Shown: positions 18,342 through 62,991 of the stretch, piece by piece
How positions within the stretch are numbered: position 1 is the stretch's first letter
Layout: the number at the start of each line of letters is the position of its first letter
Sequence record: PP445229.1
Direction: 5' to 3' (one strand)
DNA from: Escherichia phage EC.W2-6
DNA: 64,000 nucleotides
Notes under the pieces: model-generated
The model's database searches: none
Told to the model about the DNA's origin: nothing
What the model saw: only the letters and a program-made list of their open reading frames with translations
Program-made: the position numbers and the translations under genes

Positions 18342-18845
18342 ATGGCTGAAGTTTATTTTGCAGGGGATGGTCACTTAGGCCATCGCAACATCTGTAGTTT
18401 TCGTAAGCAATTTAAAACCATCGAAGAACACGACAAAGTAATCCTAGCTGCATTTGATCATGTAACTAAGCGTGATAAAATCTTCTTTACCGGTGATTGG
18501 GTGTTTGAAAAGTATGCCCTTGATATCATCGCTGAAGTAAGAGGAGAGAAGCATCTAGTCTTAGGAAACCATGACAGGTTAGAACTTCTCCCTGATATGA
18601 TGAAAGTCTTCCGTAGAATCTCTGGTGATTATAAATATAAAGAGTTTTGGGTAACTCATATTCCTATTCACACTGATGAGATGAGAGGAAAGTTTAACAT
18701 TTATGCTCATACACACAACCATGTAATTGATGATTGGAGATATTTCTGTACATCAATGGAGCAAATTGACTATAAAGCTGTTTCTCTGCAAGAGATTAGG
18801 AAGGTCTTTGATGAAAGAAGAAAAGAACAAGATCTCATTATTTAA
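18342..18845 (+). CDS. calcineurin-like metallophosphoesterase
   Basis: GDGHLGH, TGDWV, GNHD and HTHNH motifs in the canonical order. Confidence 0.7.
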   Translation: MAEVYFAGDGHLGHRNICSFRKQFKTIEEHDKVILAAFDHVTKRDKIFFTGDWVFEKYALDIIAEVRGEKHLVLGNHDRLELLPDMMKVFRRISGDYKYKEFWVTHIPIHTDEMRGKFNIYAHTHNHVIDDWRYFCTSMEQIDYKAVSLQEIRKVFDERRKEQDLII

Positions 18846-19323
18846 AGAACCTGTAGTACATAAAGATTCTATCAGAGATCAATATAATGAGATGTTAAAG
18901 AAACAAGCTGATTCTAATCTTCGTTATCAGAGGATAGTAGAACAATCTAACTTTAAAGGTTTACTTGAATGGTAACTTATATCCTTTACTTTTTAGCTTT
19001 CTTAGGAATAGTCTTTTTATCTATTCTTATTGAATTTGGTTTAAGTAAGTTAGTTAATTATTTAGGTAATAAGTAATTAATATTCTTTTAAATAGAGAAT
19101 CAAAGTCCCTAGGAGTCCCTACAACCTAAATCAAGGATTCCTTAATTCTCTATTTTTATCTCGCAGGTGGCTCCTGCCCTTCGGTACTTGCAAGGGATTC
19201 TGTGAATTGCCCAATATACAAGCCTGCAATAACTTTATCAGCTATACAATATATACATTACTAGTGTGATATATCTACTACCAAAGATACTTATATTATA
19301 TAGTACTCTTATCGGTATAAGCG

Positions 19324-19332
19324 TAATGTATA
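19324..19332 (+). promoter_or_regulatory. TAATGTATA element (candidate phage-sigma-dependent promoter)
   Basis: Exact 9-mer about 60 nt upstream of the putative SSB gene; mirrored by an inverted copy at about 19255. Confidence 0.45.
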
Positions 19333-19391
19333 CTATACATAACCGCTCAAAGAGAGCAACAATCTTTCAAATTAAATAAGGAAATTAAAAT

Positions 19392-51651: not shown

Positions 51652-53193
51652 TTAGTAACTCTGATTCCATCTGCTTACGTTTGCCTCATACAGAGAAGCA
51701 CTTCCGTAGCTAACGTCATGCTTAGAGCGACCACGATGTGTAACAGAGCACGCTGAATAGCGCATTGCATCCATTAAGTCATCATGTTCTTTAATAATCT
51801 TACCAACCTTACGGTGATATCTAGCTTTCTCTTCGAATAGCTTAGCATTAGCGGCTGTGTTAAAGATTTTAAAGCGTCCACTCATCATTCTTTCTCGGAT
51901 ATCTGTGATTCCCGGTTCTACAAAGAAGTTCTTTTTACCATCCATTCCAATTTTGTTGTAGAAGGTCTCACTCTGTACGTTAACTCCTGCATTCTTATAG
52001 AATTGAGCAACAGATGAGCCACTACCTTTCTCAATATTGTCCGCATCGTGCGGTAGGATGACAGGAATCCACTGACCACGACCATTAATAGCTGGAGCAT
52101 GATACACTGGAGTAAAGCCACCTTCTTTATATGAGTCGTAAACATAGATAGTATCCGTGTTTGCATCGTAAGCTGTCCAAACAGCAGCAGTTGGGTGATC
52201 AATACCAATATCAATTGCACAGACACGTTTCCACGTATCAGGAATTTCGAATGGTTCACATTTAATTGTGTCATCCGATACATCATAAATCAAACCACTT
52301 CCTAACAATGGCATACCTTTCGAACGCATCTCTAACTGCCACGCTGGAATACCTTCAGTCATATCTTTTATATCTTGGTCAGTGATATGTCCACCTAGGT
52401 CTGCATGAGCATCCCACCAAGAAGCGTTCTGGAAATATAGAGAACCTGTGTTCTCATCCCCTTCGCCTTTCATAAATTTATCTACCAGTTCAGTTAAACC
52501 GTTCTCTGGTGTAGCTGTAATTGTAACTAGACCTTTAGTTGTGAGTGTACGTGTGACGCACTGTGCGAATATAGCCATAGACTCGTATGGATCTTCTTCG
52601 TCTAACCAAATGTAGTCAACTGTTGCACCCATCAATGTGTGTTCACCCTGTTGGGTTGAACGGAATTCTAATGTACTTAAACCGTCAAACTCCCCTCTCT
52701 CATTTTGATGTTTGATTTGTACGATTTGAAGTTTGTTACCATCTCGTTCTATCGTGTCAATGACGATAGCATCACGAGGAATGACACCTGTCCCCAATAA
52801 GTTTGTATCCTTTCCGATAGGTGTACCAAACAATTCCTTTTGCAATACTTTCCTTGTGGAATCCCCTGTAATACCAACTGCCCATGCTAAGATAGGTCTT
52901 TTAAATTTATATCCTGTCCACCAAGTTGGGTAGCGACCTGTGACATGACAAGCAAACTCGTATGCCTCGCTATAAGATTTACCAACACGGTTCGCTGCAC
53001 ACAAGAATCTAAAGCGATGCTTCAATCCTGCTGCATAAAATTTCTTTTGGAAGTCATACGCCTTGAAAGACAAAATCTTATTATACTTCCTCCATTGGTC
53101 ACGCTCTTTCAACATATTCAATAGTGCTTTCTTTTCCTCTACACTAAGATTGTTACCAGTTAGAGCTTCATAAATTTGTTTATCTAATGACAT
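51652..53193 (-). CDS. terminase large subunit
   Basis: Walker A AANRVGKS, Walker B YIWLDEE, C-terminal nuclease-like acidic motifs (AIDIGIDHP, DAMRY). Confidence 0.85.
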   Translation of the reverse strand: MSLDKQIYEALTGNNLSVEEKKALLNMLKERDQWRKYNKILSFKAYDFQKKFYAAGLKHRFRFLCAANRVGKSYSEAYEFACHVTGRYPTWWTGYKFKRPILAWAVGITGDSTRKVLQKELFGTPIGKDTNLLGTGVIPRDAIVIDTIERDGNKLQIVQIKHQNERGEFDGLSTLEFRSTQQGEHTLMGATVDYIWLDEEDPYESMAIFAQCVTRTLTTKGLVTITATPENGLTELVDKFMKGEGDENTGSLYFQNASWWDAHADLGGHITDQDIKDMTEGIPAWQLEMRSKGMPLLGSGLIYDVSDDTIKCEPFEIPDTWKRVCAIDIGIDHPTAAVWTAYDANTDTIYVYDSYKEGGFTPVYHAPAINGRGQWIPVILPHDADNIEKGSGSSVAQFYKNAGVNVQSETFYNKIGMDGKKNFFVEPGITDIRERMMSGRFKIFNTAANAKLFEEKARYHRKVGKIIKEHDDLMDAMRYSACSVTHRGRSKHDVSYGSASLYEANVSRWNQSY

Positions 53194-53262: not shown

Positions 53263-53736
53263 TTAACTCTCGTCCGCTTCCTCCCCCTTTTCAGCGTCCT
53301 CAGAGTTGTCTTCTTCTGGAGGCATAACGTCGATACCAAGTGCTCCAGTCAAGAAGTCCTTGATTTGTGCATTCAATGATTCTTCGTTGATTACATTCTC
53401 TTCCTCAATCTTAACTTCAACAGAGGCCGCCTTAGGATATACCAGATCTGCAACTTTTGATGCAGCCTTGAATCTAAGATCAGGTGGAATATTAGGATCT
53501 TCGTAAATTTGAATTAACACTTCATCAGGAGACAAATGACTTGCAGCAACACGGTCCAACATTAATTGTGTCAGTTTACCTCTACTACCTCTGGGTCGTC
53601 CGAATTTATTTCCCTTTTGAAACTTCCCATTGCTTGGGTTCATACCACGGCCTTCAAGTTCTTCCGTTACTCCGGGTAATCTTCCTGTAATCTCAGCTAC
53701 CTGTGCAGGCGTGAGTTCTCCGTTTTCTCCAAACAT
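53263..53736 (-). CDS. putative terminase small subunit
   Basis: N-terminal helix-turn-helix-like LTPAQVAEITG, basic GNKFGRPRGS segment, acidic C-terminus; directly upstream of large terminase. Confidence 0.5.
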   Translation of the reverse strand: MFGENGELTPAQVAEITGRLPGVTEELEGRGMNPSNGKFQKGNKFGRPRGSRGKLTQLMLDRVAASHLSPDEVLIQIYEDPNIPPDLRFKAASKVADLVYPKAASVEVKIEEENVINEESLNAQIKDFLTGALGIDVMPPEEDNSEDAEKGEEADES

Positions 53737-53792: not shown

Positions 53793-54425
53793 TTACTTAC
53801 AATCACCAACGGACAGGTTAAACATCTTACCTAGAGCAATCGTCTCACCTTCCCACGGAAGTTCTGCACCCTTCTCTTCCTCTAAAAGAATAGAGCCGTC
53901 GACCAAAAATTTTTCGTAGTCTCGCAGTGCGTCGTCTACTAGCTCACTCTTGTGAATCCATGTAATTGTTTCTGTACCATCCTCTTCGATTCTAACATCA
54001 CGATGCCATTCATCTTTGGAGGTAATATAATCATGGAGCATTTCGTATTCAGCTTCTTCAATCATCTCAATCATTGCACGAGCATAGTCAGGGAGGTGAT
54101 CATGTTTAGTAGATTCGTATTCAACTACTTCCAGAGTAGAAGGCTTAGCCCGTGCAACTTCTTCAAGTACTTTTGAGCGATCTTTGTAGTAGTTCTCATA
54201 TTTATCACCAATAGTACCGACTTGAAGTCCACGGTATTGTTCTACTAAACTCATCATATCTTTCTTCTCCGTAATAGTTGGTTTAAGAATACTTCCACTA
54301 TATAAATCTTGTACAGCCAATCCTGAAACATTTCCCATAGTTTCTAAATGCTGTAAGCTACAACCAGATCGACATAGCTGTGAATTGTAATCGTTAAGGT
54401 CCATCGCTTGGATTAAATTATTCAT
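53793..54425 (-). CDS. hypothetical protein (210 aa)
   Basis: Start at internal ATG overlapping upstream gene stop by 8 nt. Confidence 0.4.
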   Translation of the reverse strand: MNNLIQAMDLNDYNSQLCRSGCSLQHLETMGNVSGLAVQDLYSGSILKPTITEKKDMMSLVEQYRGLQVGTIGDKYENYYKDRSKVLEEVARAKPSTLEVVEYESTKHDHLPDYARAMIEMIEEAEYEMLHDYITSKDEWHRDVRIEEDGTETITWIHKSELVDDALRDYEKFLVDGSILLEEEKGAELPWEGETIALGKMFNLSVGDCK

Positions 54426-54672
54426 TTGTATCTCCCTTGCTGTAATCTTTGTATGTTTCTTTTCTGTAAGTGCGGAATGCTCTGAAGAAGAGCCAACCAA
54501 AACTACTTACATCAATTGTAATATCGAAATCTGTTTCATCATCTAAATCAACAAGACGGCCTAAGCAAGTAGCTTCCATCCCTTCTTCAGAGTCACTGTT
54601 GACCACGAAAGCGTATGTCTCCGTTCTGAACCGAGGCACCATCTCTGATAAAAAGTCTAGTACTAAATTCAT
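54421..54672 (-). CDS. hypothetical acidic protein (84 aa)
   Basis: First minus-strand ORF after the large non-coding junction. Confidence 0.4.
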
Positions 54673-55261
54673 AATTCTTCTCCTCTGAATAAGAGTATAA
54701 AGGGCACATCATAAGACCTACCCGTAAAGGCCACCTCACATTAACACCCGTGAGAATACCTGTATTCATTTTCGTAGTCTTCTTCAGAGAAGCTACCGTA
54801 TTCATCTTCTGTCATACATCCCTCTGATAAAGTTAAGACATAAAGGGGACGTCATCTTTGATGACTACTTCACATTAAGGCACCCCCATAAAGGCCATGT
54901 CACGTTAAGGCCTATCCATCCATGTGCTGTGTTTAAGCTTACCACATTTACTACATCTCCAAGTGGACTTATAAAGGGTGTGAACTCTTTCATCCCCGTA
55001 AGCTTTGCGTATCCGATAGTACTCATGATCACATTTGAATTGCTTAATGATTAACTTAATTTTCCACATAAGTTCTCTTTCAACCTTATATATAAGAGTT
55101 TAAAATACAGATTTATAAAAAATAAAGATGTATATATCTGTTTAAAATTCTGATTTGACCGAGTGGGGCTAGCCGCTCGCCGCGCGTTTCCTAAAAGGGG
55201 GGAGTCCTCATTTAAAAAAGGGTTATTGGCAATGCCTTTACACCTCCTTCCACGTTCCAAC

Positions 55262-55330
55262 CTTTCCCCGTGCCTACTCCCCGTTATTCTTTCCCCGTGT
55301 ATACCATCCTATTCATTAGCTACCCGTTTA
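55262..55330. repeat. iteron cluster 1 (four YCCCGTR repeats)
   Basis: TTTCCCCGTG, CTCCCCGTT, TTTCCCCGTG and CTACCCGTT within 70 bp. Confidence 0.55.
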
Positions 55331-55635
55331 TTTAGTACCCCTTTAGAGAGTGAGAGAAAGGCTATACTCTGATAAGGCACAATCATAACAGGTCTAATAA
55401 TACCGTATTGTTACCGTTCAGCTCCCCATAGTTTGAATGTAAATAGTTTCAATAGTAATGATTATGAGTGCAATAATGATGTATGTATTAATTAAGTGGA
55501 TGATTGTAATTCTTTTAATAATTGCTTTTATTCTTTTCTTTTTCAGCGTGCCTTTGTGAGCGTAGCGAACGTCTTTGATGTTTGAGTTATACAATTATTT
55601 AAGTGGTATATTATTACCGCACTATCTTGCTATGT

Positions 55636-55722
55636 TTCCCCGTGGTCTACCCTGCGGTTGTATGCTCCCCGTGTCCTGGTCTGTTGGTCTGCTACCCGTA
55701 GCACCAGCGTAACACCCGTAGG
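55636..55722. repeat. iteron cluster 2 (four YCCCGTR repeats, ~25 bp spacing)
   Basis: TTTCCCCGTGG, CTCCCCGTG, CTACCCGTAG and AACACCCGTAG; separated from cluster 1 by an AT-rich stretch. Confidence 0.55.
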
Positions 55723-55836
55723 ATTAGTGTTATAAAGTAACAATAGCTAGTAAGCTGATTCTCTGAGTATGGAAGGTTTAGTAAATTAAATTCCTTTAGT
55801 TTTCAGTGAGTTATAAGAAAGTTAGAAAATAAATGG

Positions 55837-55866
55837 TTGACAGGTTTTTCCTTTATTATATAGTTG
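55837..55866 (+). promoter_or_regulatory. sigma70-like promoter (TTGACA-N16-TATAGT)
   Basis: Near-consensus -35 and -10 hexamers about 45 nt upstream of the 55909 gene; spacer closely resembles the promoter at 58091. Confidence 0.55.
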
Positions 55867-55908
55867 CGATTGTAATTTGTAGTTTTCATCAACCATAAGG
55901 AATATCAA

Positions 55909-56781
55909 ATGTCTAAAGTAGCAATTAACCACTTGAACAAAGCAAACGAAAGCCTTTCCTCTTTAGGCTTAACCGTTGGTAGTCCTGATGCGTGGATGGA
56001 AAACGAAAGCGCACGTAAAGGATTCAAAAACTCTGTAATGCTGGCTTGCTTGATCATTAATTCTACTGCGAACGCCTTACAGTGTGAAGATGAAAGCACG
56101 TTCAAAGAGAATGGCTTTACCGATATACAGGACGCTATCAACTGTTACATTCAGGCAAATTTGGATAGCTGGAATCAGAAAGATTGGCCTGAGTCATGCC
56201 GTGATGTGAAAGCTGAATTATCCCGCTTGTCTGTCATGGTTGAAGCATGGAACAAGAAAAACAAGAAACAACCAATCAAGCCTACTGTTGCAAGTAAGAT
56301 TATGAAGTCTGTTAATCTGGCAAGTTATGCACTGGTTGCAGCTATCGGTGTTAGTGCACTGGTCACGTCTCTTTCTGATAAGGCTATCGCTAGTCCTGCT
56401 CCTGCAACTGATGCGGCTAGTGTCTTCTCTAGTTCCATCAATAAGGGTTGGATGATTTGCAACGGTGCGGATAGTGACGGCAATAATATCGTGCTAAAGA
56501 TGAAATTTAGCAACGTAACAAATGATGGAGTTCTCTTTCAATCTAAAACGTTAGATAATCAGCCTAACAGTGATCTAGTTCTCAAGCGTACTGATAACGA
56601 TGCGGATATGGTGACATTTGGCACTGTACAACGTTATGAAGACGTTAAAGCTGTAACCAACCTAGTGAGCTATGGCCCGATCAATGAGTCGATGATCGCC
56701 ACCACGGTTTACAATAACGCTGATAATGCTGTTTATACTGTTCACGTTAATTTAGCCAACTGCATTAAGGCTAGTAAGTAA
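55909..56781 (+). CDS. membrane protein with central TM helix (290 aa)
   Basis: Hydrophobic LASYALVAAIGVSALVTSL between a helical N-domain and beta-rich C-domain; sigma70-like promoter about 45 nt upstream. Confidence 0.5.
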   Translation: MSKVAINHLNKANESLSSLGLTVGSPDAWMENESARKGFKNSVMLACLIINSTANALQCEDESTFKENGFTDIQDAINCYIQANLDSWNQKDWPESCRDVKAELSRLSVMVEAWNKKNKKQPIKPTVASKIMKSVNLASYALVAAIGVSALVTSLSDKAIASPAPATDAASVFSSSINKGWMICNGADSDGNNIVLKMKFSNVTNDGVLFQSKTLDNQPNSDLVLKRTDNDADMVTFGTVQRYEDVKAVTNLVSYGPINESMIATTVYNNADNAVYTVHVNLANCIKASK

Positions 56782-56805: not shown

Positions 56806-57069
56806 ATGGCTATCAAAGAAATTAAGTTATCTAATGGCTTTTCTTGTTTTGTTGGTGGAAGCTCTATCCTGTTTAATACACTTGATGGTCAGATAACGTT
56901 ACCTGTTATCACTTTTTGCAGGATGGAATATCAGCCTCTTAAAGATTGGCTAGCCTTTGCTGATTTTGAAATTACCCGTGAAGACTTCAAATCAATCTAT
57001 ATTGACGGTGATTTATCACTGGCTAACCTGCTCAATCATGGACTAATTAAGGGTGATATTAATGGGTAA
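56806..57069 (+). CDS. hypothetical protein (87 aa)
   Basis: ORF with GGGAG upstream. Confidence 0.4.
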   Translation: MAIKEIKLSNGFSCFVGGSSILFNTLDGQITLPVITFCRMEYQPLKDWLAFADFEITREDFKSIYIDGDLSLANLLNHGLIKGDING

Positions 57070-57408: not shown

Positions 57409-57786
57409 GTGATTATTATCATGGGTATTATCAAATTTGTAGTAAAAGTATTCGTGGGCTTCTTCCTTGTCGTTCTCCTGCTGGGTGTGCTCCTATCGGC
57501 TATGGGTAGCGTTAAGGCTGCAACATTCTCCCCTGCTACGGTGGAAGGTTTACAGTGCACCTATTTGATAGAAAATTATGATACCGGTAAAAAGTCACCT
57601 AAAGTTATTATTTTGCATGTAAATGATTTCGATCATGTGCAATCAGATAGTAAAACTATTCTACTGGTAAATGAAACTACTGGTAAACAAATCACGGTCG
57701 ATCACTTGATGCGCTCATCGTTAACGCTCTTTGATGAGTCCATGAATGAAATGGCATCCGGTAATGGTCAATGTGTAAATCCATAG
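57409..57786 (+). CDS. membrane-anchored/secreted protein (125 aa)
   Basis: N-terminal hydrophobic segment (IIKFVVKVFVGFFLVVLLLGVLLSAMG); two Cys in extracytoplasmic part; terminator downstream. Confidence 0.45.
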   Translation: MIIIMGIIKFVVKVFVGFFLVVLLLGVLLSAMGSVKAATFSPATVEGLQCTYLIENYDTGKKSPKVIILHVNDFDHVQSDSKTILLVNETTGKQITVDHLMRSSLTLFDESMNEMASGNGQCVNP

Positions 57787-62105: not shown

Positions 62106-62495
62106 ATGTTGACATTGACTATTTATTATGAGGCAGGGAATCAGCCAACCGCATGTAAGGCTTTAGTTGCGGATACCGTGATAAATAGAATGGCCCAACG
62201 AAAACTGACCGCTGAACAGGTGATAAGACAAAAGAACCAGTTTGAGTGGATTCCGGTACTATTAAAACAGGAGAAACCTTATAAACGTTATGTAAAGCTG
62301 ATTCGTGATAAAAATCCGATGACTAAGCAAGCCATTGGAGAAAGCGAGCGGCTGGCTAAACGTGCCCTTAAGAAGAATTATGTTCCGCTGTACAGTGGGA
62401 CTTACTTTCAGAGTAAGAGCGAAGGGGTGCCAAAATGGTATGCCAATCCTATGTATTGTGGTGATTTAGTATTTGATAATAGCTCTAGGGAATAA
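62106..62495 (+). CDS. cell-wall hydrolase, SleB-like (Hydrolase_2 family)
   Basis: TIYYEAGNQP ... KALVADTVINRM and GTYFQSKSEGVPKWYANPMYCGDLVF parallel the conserved blocks of SleB-type hydrolases as I recall them. Confidence 0.55.
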   Translation: MLTLTIYYEAGNQPTACKALVADTVINRMAQRKLTAEQVIRQKNQFEWIPVLLKQEKPYKRYVKLIRDKNPMTKQAIGESERLAKRALKKNYVPLYSGTYFQSKSEGVPKWYANPMYCGDLVFDNSSRE

Positions 62496-62694
62496 TCACT
62501 AGTGCCAGATTTGACAAACTAAATTCCTTTATAAACCAACCACTTAGTAAATTTATTGAAAAAGATGGTAGTATTCTGGGACTATGGGTAATGCTCTGTA
62601 TATAGACCCTTTGAAAATTTCTTAGAAAATAAGTTTACTAAATATAACTTACTTAAATAATATTACTTTTAATCTCTGATAAAGGGTAAATAAT

Positions 62695-62991
62695 ATGACT
62701 TTAGAAGTATATAAATTCCTTTTTGTAAGCTGTTTAACTATCAGCGTTCTAGGATTTATTGTTCTAAGAAACAAAGCAGCAAGCTGGGAAAGAATGTATA
62801 AATCCCTAGTCCGAGTGGATGAGATGTATAATGAGAAGGTTAAAGTAACACTCAACGATCTTATTATGCAAGTTGAGGACAGAAACAAGCGTCTTCAGAA
62901 CCTCAATCACGAAGTGTTACGCCTTGCTCGTGCTAATGAAGACTTGCGAATAGCTATTGCTAAGCAGCAGGAGATTAACAGTGATAATTGA
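62695..62991 (+). CDS. membrane protein with N-terminal TM helix and coiled coil (98 aa)
   Basis: FLFVSCLTISVLGFIVL hydrophobic segment followed by heptad-rich helix. Confidence 0.45.
   Translation: MTLEVYKFLFVSCLTISVLGFIVLRNKAASWERMYKSLVRVDEMYNEKVKVTLNDLIMQVEDRNKRLQNLNHEVLRLARANEDLRIAIAKQQEINSDN

Follow-up and report, generated by a model that had tools for sequence, protein, structure and literature searches.

Podophages of the phiEco32 type end in short direct terminal repeats (DTRs), for which PMC9965538 gives Savalia et al. 2008 as the source. The ends of these phages have been mapped by restriction mapping and primer walking, with PhageTerm and from full-length nanopore reads (PMC9965538, PMC6787329, PMC4281155), and the same papers report how long the repeat is and that its ends are blunt, and describe a single internal CCCTTTTTTA repeat as well as a conserved block. 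For YF01 a 193-bp DTR was annotated from full-length nanopore reads (PMC9965538), a 193-bp repeat was independently predicted for Paul by PhageTerm (PMC6787329), and in SU10 the reads break off abruptly where the repeat ends, a sign of blunt ends (PMC4281155). Transcription in phiEco32-like phages relies on the host polymerase, and according to the SU10 authors the mechanism of end generation is unknown (PMC4281155). Recognition and duplication of ends in phages with short exact repeats are well studied only for T7 and T3, where a phage RNA polymerase takes part. Here we describe the corresponding junction in 64,000 nucleotides of Escherichia phage EC.W2-6 (PP445229.1), a stretch referred to as the window, together with arrays of the short motif CCCGT in and beside its DTR. 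Within the genus the terminal repeat has been described before, and the arrays seem to be new: neither they nor their extension into the flanks are described in PMC4281155, PMC9965538 or PMC6787329, the comparison leaving aside Savalia 2008 and Pavlova 2012.

Escherichia phage EC.W8-1 (PQ030848.1, 76,408 bp) has, over its first 64 kb, the same sequence as the window. That record is classified under Gordonclarkvirinae, Kuravirus, i.e. the phiEco32-like podophages with elongated heads, and was deposited as a circle, opened arbitrarily, with a single copy of the terminal repeat. Comparison with mapped relatives indicates that the locus is almost certainly the DTR junction, and with it the concatemer junction, of such a phage. 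The repeat and its landmarks are the following.

55171 to 55363, unstranded: DTR, 193 bp, from the exact alignment of the mapped ends of phiEco32, YF01 and Paul.
55167 to 55174, unstranded: left DTR boundary in the 8-bp palindrome GGCT^AGCC (GGCTAGCC), predicted cut between 55170 and 55171.
55360 to 55367, unstranded: right DTR boundary AAAGGCT^A, predicted cut between 55363 and 55364, the bottom strand reading T^AGCC.
55192 to 55222, plus strand: most conserved DTR block, TAAAAGGGGGGAGTCCTCATTTAAAAAAGGG, invariant in alignment A3 and a candidate core terminase recognition site.

Segment 55171-55363 is assigned as the DTR because the mapped ends of phiEco32, Paul and YF01 align exactly at its two boundaries. 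The aligned YF01 end starts exactly at 55171. After reverse complementation, the right end of phiEco32 begins at 55171 (AGCCGCTCGCC...) and its left end finishes at 55363 (...GAGAAAGGCT). Both boundaries of the Paul repeat are identical to those of the window, and CCCGT stands at its repeat positions 97, 110, 124 and 153. All ends are placed by exact homology to mapped relatives, none from reads of this isolate. Since the assembly was circularised, the DTR is present only once in the record; in virion DNA both ends would carry a copy. With the DTRs of SU10, Paul and YF01 the segment shares the length of 193 bp, the boundary words, 84–93% identity and the internal repeat known from SU10, so that it represents the same element. 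A first-pass annotation of 55262-55722 had proposed a genome terminus, terminal repeat or packaging region next to its lead reading as an origin, and this part of the proposal is borne out by the repeat at 55171-55363, bounded as mapped in phiEco32, Paul and YF01.

The word (G/C)CT^AG(C/G) at the left boundary is conserved in 17 related junctions. The 5′ ends begin with AGCC at both termini of phiEco32 and Paul, and at the one YF01 end that was checked. With the T that stands before each AGCC end in the junction, both boundaries have the form YT^AGCC, one on each strand and directed into the repeat, which suggests a single nicking specificity acting 193 bp apart. Within the DTR, the TAAAAGGGGGGAGTCCTCATTTAAAAAAGGG block persists even in distant relatives with a small terminase (TerS) of 66–77% identity. 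Its counterpart in SU10 is the internal repeat CCCTTTTTTA-10 nt-CCCTTTTTTA (PMC4281155). A potential hairpin at the left boundary (GAGTGG-GGCTAG-CCGCTC) was considered and discarded, the DNA fold being no more stable than that of shuffled sequences (z 0.74).

Some observations on the repeat and its surroundings may be added. Compared with phiEco32, a 42-bp tandem duplication is found at 55089-55156 (TATATAAGAGTTTAAAATACAGATTT / TATATATCTGTTTAAAATTCTGATTT), within a stretch given by the SU10 authors as a potential sigma-70 promoter of the other arm's first gene. Inferred repeat lengths among the relatives are 192–193 bp, 205 bp in Bas89 and 249–280 bp in the SU7 type. The annotated repeats of SU7 and PAS59 (53 bp and 275 bp) are at odds with the conserved boundary words.

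The second feature of the junction is a set of short repeats distributed over the DTR and both neighbouring arms.

55262 to 55330, plus strand: cluster 1, four CCCGT cores (55267, 55280, 55294, 55323) spaced by 13, 14 and 29 bp, wholly within the DTR.
55364 to 55635, unstranded: AT-rich spacer, 272 bp, 31.2% GC compared to 42.1% in the window, among the lowest 0.8% of equal-sized segments.
55422 to 55431, plus strand: isolated variant copy CCCCATAGTT, invariant across relatives, in which it lies 55–120 bp past the DTR.
55635 to 55722, plus strand: cluster 2, four CCCGT cores (55639, 55668, 55695, 55715) spaced by 29, 27 and 20 bp.
54712 to 54999, plus strand: scattered copies of the other arm, CCCGT at 54721, 54747 and 54995, CCCAT at 54885.

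Between 54721 and 55719, eleven CCCGT cores are found on the plus strand and none on the minus strand. Outside this kilobase the background amounts to 0.29 copies per kb per strand, corresponding to a Poisson P of ~3e-14. Simulating the window 200 times with a first-order Markov model gave at most five copies on one strand in any 1 kb, and the runner-up 1-kb segment of the whole 76.4-kb genome holds three copies. The 10-mer TTTCCCCGTG occurs three times in the genome, each time at the junction. Counting the variants, the plus-strand copies of the window are distributed as four in the DTR, four plus one on the early-gene side and three plus one on the other side. Cluster 2 lies 276–356 bp past the DTR in the early-gene arm, 150–230 bp upstream of the promoter at 55837-55864, and some copies of the other arm are embedded in a longer repeat, CCCRTAAAGGCC..CACRTTAA. 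The plus strand at the junction is C-rich, with a GC skew of −0.15 to −0.26.

Most of the description given by the first-pass annotation agrees with these counts. Its two clusters of four motifs each lie where it had put them, at 55267-55323 and 55639-55715; the excess of the 5-mer core over chance is real (11 copies against 0.29 expected per kb per strand); the stretch between the clusters is strongly AT-rich, with 31.2% GC at 55364-55635; and it lies in an interval (54805-55909) without annotated genes, in line with the absence of open reading frames (ORFs) claimed for it. Its figure of at least eleven YCCCGTR motifs holds for the CCCGT core, on the plus strand, and fails for the consensus as written, which matches only five of the eleven copies and is no more frequent in the window than chance predicts (11 found, 10.8 expected). 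This consensus was therefore dropped. The unit actually present in the window is CCCGT, with C or A before it and G, A or T after it.

For comparison we used 17 related junctions. The set includes phiEco32, YF01, Paul, XT32, Bas94, Bas92, Bas89, MLP3, TH42, TH34 and SU7, the phage EP335 from a different genus (about 67% DNA identity at the junction), two IMG/VR contigs, and four Logan metagenome contigs from relatives of 88–100 kb with TerS 75–77% identical. The layout of the arrays is kept in 16 of the 17 junctions while the DNA between the copies diverges to 66–75% identity; alignment A3 likewise shows persisting copies in freely diverging surroundings. A table of 11 junctions gave, for CCCRT on the plus strand, 4–5 copies in the repeat, 2–5 (mostly at least three) copies 276–450 bp past it, one invariant CCCCATAGTT 55–120 bp past it and 3–6 copies in the 500 bp on its other side. 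On the minus strand CCCRT was absent, with rare cases of one or two copies, and on the other side of the repeat the relatives have no minus-strand copy. Paul, XT32 and an NJ01-like contig carry the cluster 1 copies at identical DTR positions (97, 110, 124, 153). In SU7, MLP3, TH42 and TH34 the equivalent positions are occupied mostly by TACCCAT, mixed with TACCCGT, position and number being kept. Because the SU7-type phages carry TACCCAT at array positions, the unit is better written as CCCRT. Spacings between neighbouring copies fall into two narrow modes, 12–16 bp (19 of 60) and 27–31 bp (37 of 60).

Six features are preserved in the distant Logan relatives: the boundary word GGCT^AGCG; the block AAAAGGGGGAGTCCTCATT; a copy or two close to the repeat's inner edge; a T-tract that ends in TTTTCAGCG or a variant of it; a TTAAGTG box; and a three-copy cluster of the ACCCGTTTA type. 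In the most distant relative examined (Logan SRR6957156 and JGI 3300013307, TerS 66%) only the landmark block GGGGAGTCCTC is kept and the CCCRT arrays are absent. There, an excess of ACTAT/AACTAT on one strand, 8 copies against 0.7 expected, is found about 30–280 bp past the GGGGAGTCCTC landmark, which may reflect turnover of the motif with the architecture kept. Survival of core, number, polarity and spacing over such wide divergence indicates selection on the copies themselves.

The closest parallel to this arrangement is found in T7, which was checked directly on sequence NC_001604. There, the heptamer CCTAAAG occurs at positions 17, 41 and 60 of the 160-bp terminal repeat and eight more times at 175-340, in part with 13 bp as the period. 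Before the right repeat there are additional copies as well as variants. The orientation is the same throughout, and the dense array, which belongs to the early-gene side, comes before promoters A1-A3. These arrays, which we take to be SRL and SRR, are reportedly described by Dunn and Studier in 1983; our literature search found no open paper on the heptamer arrays. Common to both phages are a short motif in one orientation inside the repeat and denser arrays in the unique sequence to either side of the junction, the richest array standing on the early-gene side before early promoters of the host RNA polymerase, with a period of about 13 bp. The likeness is architectural only, as the motifs (CCTAAAG and CCCGT) are unrelated and the terminases only distantly related. 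Moreover, the T7 array abuts the repeat, whereas cluster 2 here lies ~275 bp away beyond the AT-rich spacer, and the kuraviruses lack the phage RNA polymerase that takes part in the processing of T7 concatemers. The arrays are best classed as a further example of a known feature, short repeats of one orientation within and next to a short DTR.

Small terminases of other phages read repeated sub-sites, such as the R sites of lambda cosB, the pacL and pacR boxes of SPP1 and the hexamers that flank the cut in P1 pac. Multiple short sub-sites near a cut, presumably read by an oligomeric helix-turn-helix (HTH) protein, are a shared trait, and clusters on both sides of the cleavage site (here 55363/55364) are shared with P1 pac. 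In contrast to these systems, the candidate sites here are spread over more than 1 kb, and the ends are exact DTR ends rather than of the cos or headful type. In LUZ24, whose large terminase (TerL) is 39% identical and whose DTR measures 184 bp, about ten loose copies of the GGTAT/ATACC type were noted in and around the repeat at the junction. As these repeats are only loose, LUZ24 was rejected as a clean parallel and offers a weaker hint of a similar design in a related terminase clade.

Our leading explanation, to which we give a probability of roughly 45%, is that the CCCGT arrays are directional cis-signals by which the concatemer is recognised and cut during packaging. The CCCRT copies would be short sub-sites bound cooperatively by an oligomeric packaging protein of the phage, the best candidate being a TerS of the PaP3 type. 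The invariant block AAAAGGGGGAGTCCTCATTTAAAAAA / GGGAGTCCTC and the arrays would together assemble the terminase at the junction. The enzyme would then cut YT^AGCC on opposite strands, 193 bp apart, leaving 5′ overhangs, and fill-in synthesis would duplicate the repeat and yield two blunt ends, each with a full repeat. Nicking followed by fill-in is the classical scheme for ends of the T7 type. Support for this packaging model comes from the placement of the ends at this locus, from the extreme enrichment, limited to the junction within the genome, from the conserved layout, and from the similar design of T7 as the model phage with short DTRs. A directional process along the concatemer is indicated as the single polarity spans the switch between divergent transcription units; functions that are symmetric with respect to the ends, or the control of two outward promoters, fit this polarity less well. 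From the two narrow spacing modes, cooperative binding of an oligomer would be expected, and both cut sites (55170/55171 and 55363/55364) lie within or adjoin arrays of regularly spaced sub-sites.

The proposed binder is the putative small terminase, whose gene lies 1.5 kb from the arrays.

53263 to 53736, minus strand: probable small terminase (TerS), 157 aa, candidate array binder, assigned by weak profile matches to small terminases and by its position adjoining TerL upstream.
51652 to 53193, minus strand: large terminase (TerL), from the annotation and from homologues with Terminase_6N/6C domains.

A Pfam scan of the 157-aa protein gave no matches, nor did a single-sequence phmmer search against the PDB. 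Only a profile search yielded any: with a profile from 41 homologues, the top two PDB sequences were small terminases, 7joq (E 0.0024) and 6w7t (PaP3, E 0.044), both matches being weak and covering the oligomerisation core. Comparing profiles, the YF01 authors came to the same assignment (PMC9965538). The TerS of PaP3 is a nonamer whose nine HTH motifs are arranged in a ring at the periphery, and it binds its packaging site sequence-specifically in vitro (PMC7672466). A search of viral contigs with the kuravirus TerS gave five close loci, and the TerS-like gene adjoining TerL is ~91% identical in the array-bearing phages examined, of both the CCCGT and the CCCAT type. What we infer is the binding of the sites by this protein and their action in packaging. 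More specifically, the CCCRT arrays might form a docking platform on which a nonameric TerS of the PaP3 type recognises and measures the junction, in a phage without an RNA polymerase of its own; this narrower proposal is more tentative than that of a packaging signal as such.

Several points weigh against a packaging function and against TerS as its reader. The most deeply conserved element of the DTR is the GGGAGTCCTC block rather than the CCCGT array, and this block may suffice for recognition. Cluster 2 lies ~275 bp from the nearest cut, which is far for an element that serves to recognise a cleavage site. The junctions compared are phylogenetically linked, so that the conservation counts are not independent. 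The AlphaFold model of TerS is of low confidence (pLDDT 69, pTM 0.35), and a Foldseek search with it against the PDB gave nothing significant, PaP3 TerS appearing at rank 23. No residue change in TerS tracks the CCCGT or CCCAT motif type. To our knowledge, the function of the analogous T7 arrays is itself unproven. Regarding covariation, a site read as CCCRT would fit both motif variants, so the result neither supports nor excludes TerS. Genome-wide tblastn of the EC.W8-1 ORFs against MLP3 (CCCAT) and EP335 (CCCGT) showed TerL and TerS to be equally conserved in both. The early arm covaries with the motif class as one linked block, for which reason no single binder can be picked from these data.

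MLP3 (OK148440) is a mosaic. Its tail and structural genes matching window positions 40.7-47 kb are 95–100% identical to EC.W8-1, and its early arm resembles that of SU7, as does its terminal repeat, for which a length of 249 bp is inferred. The repeat region thus travels with the early arm and not with the terminase genes.

Among the alternatives, control of transcription or of DNA entry holds up best, and we regard it as unlikely rather than implausible. The arrays would bind a regulator of the outward early promoters, or they would pause or anchor the DNA end that enters or that is packaged last. Two elements of the early arm are relevant here.

55837 to 55864, plus strand: sigma-70 early promoter TTGACA, 16 nt, TATAGT, serving the first early gene, from a promoter scan.
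55909 to 56781, plus strand: first early gene, 290 aa, homologue of phiEco32 gp128.

The promoter is the one tabulated upstream of CDS125 in SU10 (supplement S2, PMC4281155). A position of cluster 2 150–230 bp upstream of this strong promoter would suit a regulatory site, as would the potential sigma-70 promoter of the other arm, which abuts the DTR (SU10 table S2, PMC4281155), and whichever end enters first would present sites. On the other hand, one polarity runs across the divergent promoter pair, and the sites lie far upstream of the promoters or downstream from them. As a possible regulator, the phage encodes an early 103-aa protein (EC.W8-1 67544-67855, outside the window) with tandem HTH motifs (Sigma70_r4_2, E 3e-7), the only HTH detectable by Pfam among 20 ORFs scanned, ten flanking the junction and ten from the early arm. 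It is 89% identical in EP335 and missing from MLP3, which nevertheless bears arrays, and this argues against the protein as the general array binder. CCCGT is not known to match any E. coli regulator motif. Scans of the junction for promoters and terminators gave only the one sigma-70 consensus promoter and no intrinsic terminators, and an Rfam scan of 54400-56100 remained without matches at E up to 1.

The first-pass annotation had named a replication origin first, with the motifs as iterons and the AT-rich spacer as unwinding element. This lead reading is not supported, and such an origin, with CCCGT as initiator sites, or one primed by transcription as in T7 from the promoter-like blocks of the spacer, appears less likely still than a regulatory role. 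The 272-bp spacer (31% GC, lowest 0.8% of segments) does stand between two repeat clusters and contains strongly conserved non-coding blocks, a pyrimidine tract and an extended −10-like word; our literature search turned up no mapped origin for this phage group. T7 phiOL is annotated at 405, and a secondary origin, consisting of phiOL and an AT-rich stretch, directly follows the left-end array. Direct repeats beside an AT-rich stretch are also the hallmark shared with iteron origins such as lambda ori and plasmid oriV. In those, however, the iteron measures 17–22 bp, compared to a shared unit of only 5–8 bp here, and the junction showed neither a cognate initiator gene nor DnaA boxes: no Rep- or initiator-like protein was found, the ten flanking genes giving no Pfam or informative PHROG matches, and DnaA-box matches are no more numerous than expected by chance, none of them lying in 55171-55900. 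The T7-like replisome of the phage (DNA polymerase and primase-helicase) belongs to a type for which the use of iterons is not known. Nor is AT-richness specific by itself, with comparably AT-rich stretches elsewhere in the window, at about 18.6-18.9 kb and 62.4-62.6 kb and nowhere else. Finally, half of the copies lie within the terminal repeat or on its far side, a distribution that an origin does not account for. That the copies have no sequence-specific function at all and are remnants of local duplications in C-rich non-coding DNA is very improbable: the C-rich plus strand and the 42-bp duplication would agree with it, but the core is kept while its flanks diverge, number, spacing and orientation persist at 66% DNA identity and in the 88–100 kb relatives, and the other strand holds no copies.

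If the docking-platform proposal is true, these phages would offer a T7-independent route to exact duplication of a terminal repeat and, by analogy, a first functional assignment for the short-repeat arrays of T7. If the arrays prove dispensable, the finding shrinks to the already known DTR. In either case a conserved, oriented and regularly spaced array provides concrete targets for mutagenesis and for TerS binding work.

The spacer itself contains three conserved non-coding elements.

About 55455 to 55506: conserved block GATTATGAGTGCAATAATGATGTATGTATTAATTAAGTGGAT.
About 55531 to 55548: conserved T-tract TTCTTTTCTTTTTCAGCG, the TTCTTTTCTTTTTCAGCG unit being duplicated in some relatives.
55593 to 55621: conserved block AATTATTTAAGTGGTATATTATTACCGCA, containing the extended −10-like word TGGTATATT (55604-55612).

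The word TGGTATATT resembles an extended −10 element, and a transcript starting from it would run through cluster 2; the spacer may thus hold an additional early promoter. A box TTAAGTGG occurs twice in the spacer, at 55492-55499 and 55599-55606. The promoter motif of the phiEco32 sigma factor (gp36), TAATGTATA, has no exact copy in the junction. Its single match there with one mismatch (55310-55318, minus strand) is unremarkable, as 22 such matches were found and 19 expected. Of the two other AT-rich regions of the window, at ~18630-19200 and ~62400-62900, the first adjoins a cluster of TAATGTATA motifs at 19243-19342.

The DTR separates the packaging and structural arm from the early-gene arm. 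To the left of the flagged region the genes lie on the minus strand, in the order of small ORFs, a 210-aa protein, the 157-aa protein, TerL and portal; to the right, on the plus strand, the early genes begin at 55909. The source record annotates no gene in 54805-55909. In the other arm, composite repeats were seen at 54690-54930, TAAGRC..CCCRTAAAGGCCAYSTCACRTTAA twice (54712-54744 and 54876-54908) and ATAAAGGGSACRTCAT twice. The tiny ORFs annotated in this segment vary with the record, being gp1-gp4 in phiEco32, one coding sequence in EC.W8-1 and none in MLP3. Owing to these differences part of the segment may be non-coding signal DNA. Three gene labels are without Pfam support and resemble propagated annotation errors: the GenBank/PHROG 'ABC transporter' (210 aa, 53793-54425, minus strand), the 'DNA polymerase B region' (87 aa, 56806-57069, plus strand) and the 'terminase' label on a 121-aa early gene (57421-57786, plus strand).

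A practical rule can be given for kuravirus records that are circular or were opened arbitrarily: the true ends are found by AGCC at both 5′ ends together with the GGGAGTCCTC landmark. Phages of this kind are under development for therapy against E. coli, so that getting the ends and packaging signals right is relevant to engineering and to judging the risk of transduction. If the ends inferred here hold, the virion DNA would be 76,601 bp long, starting at 55171 or ending at 55363.

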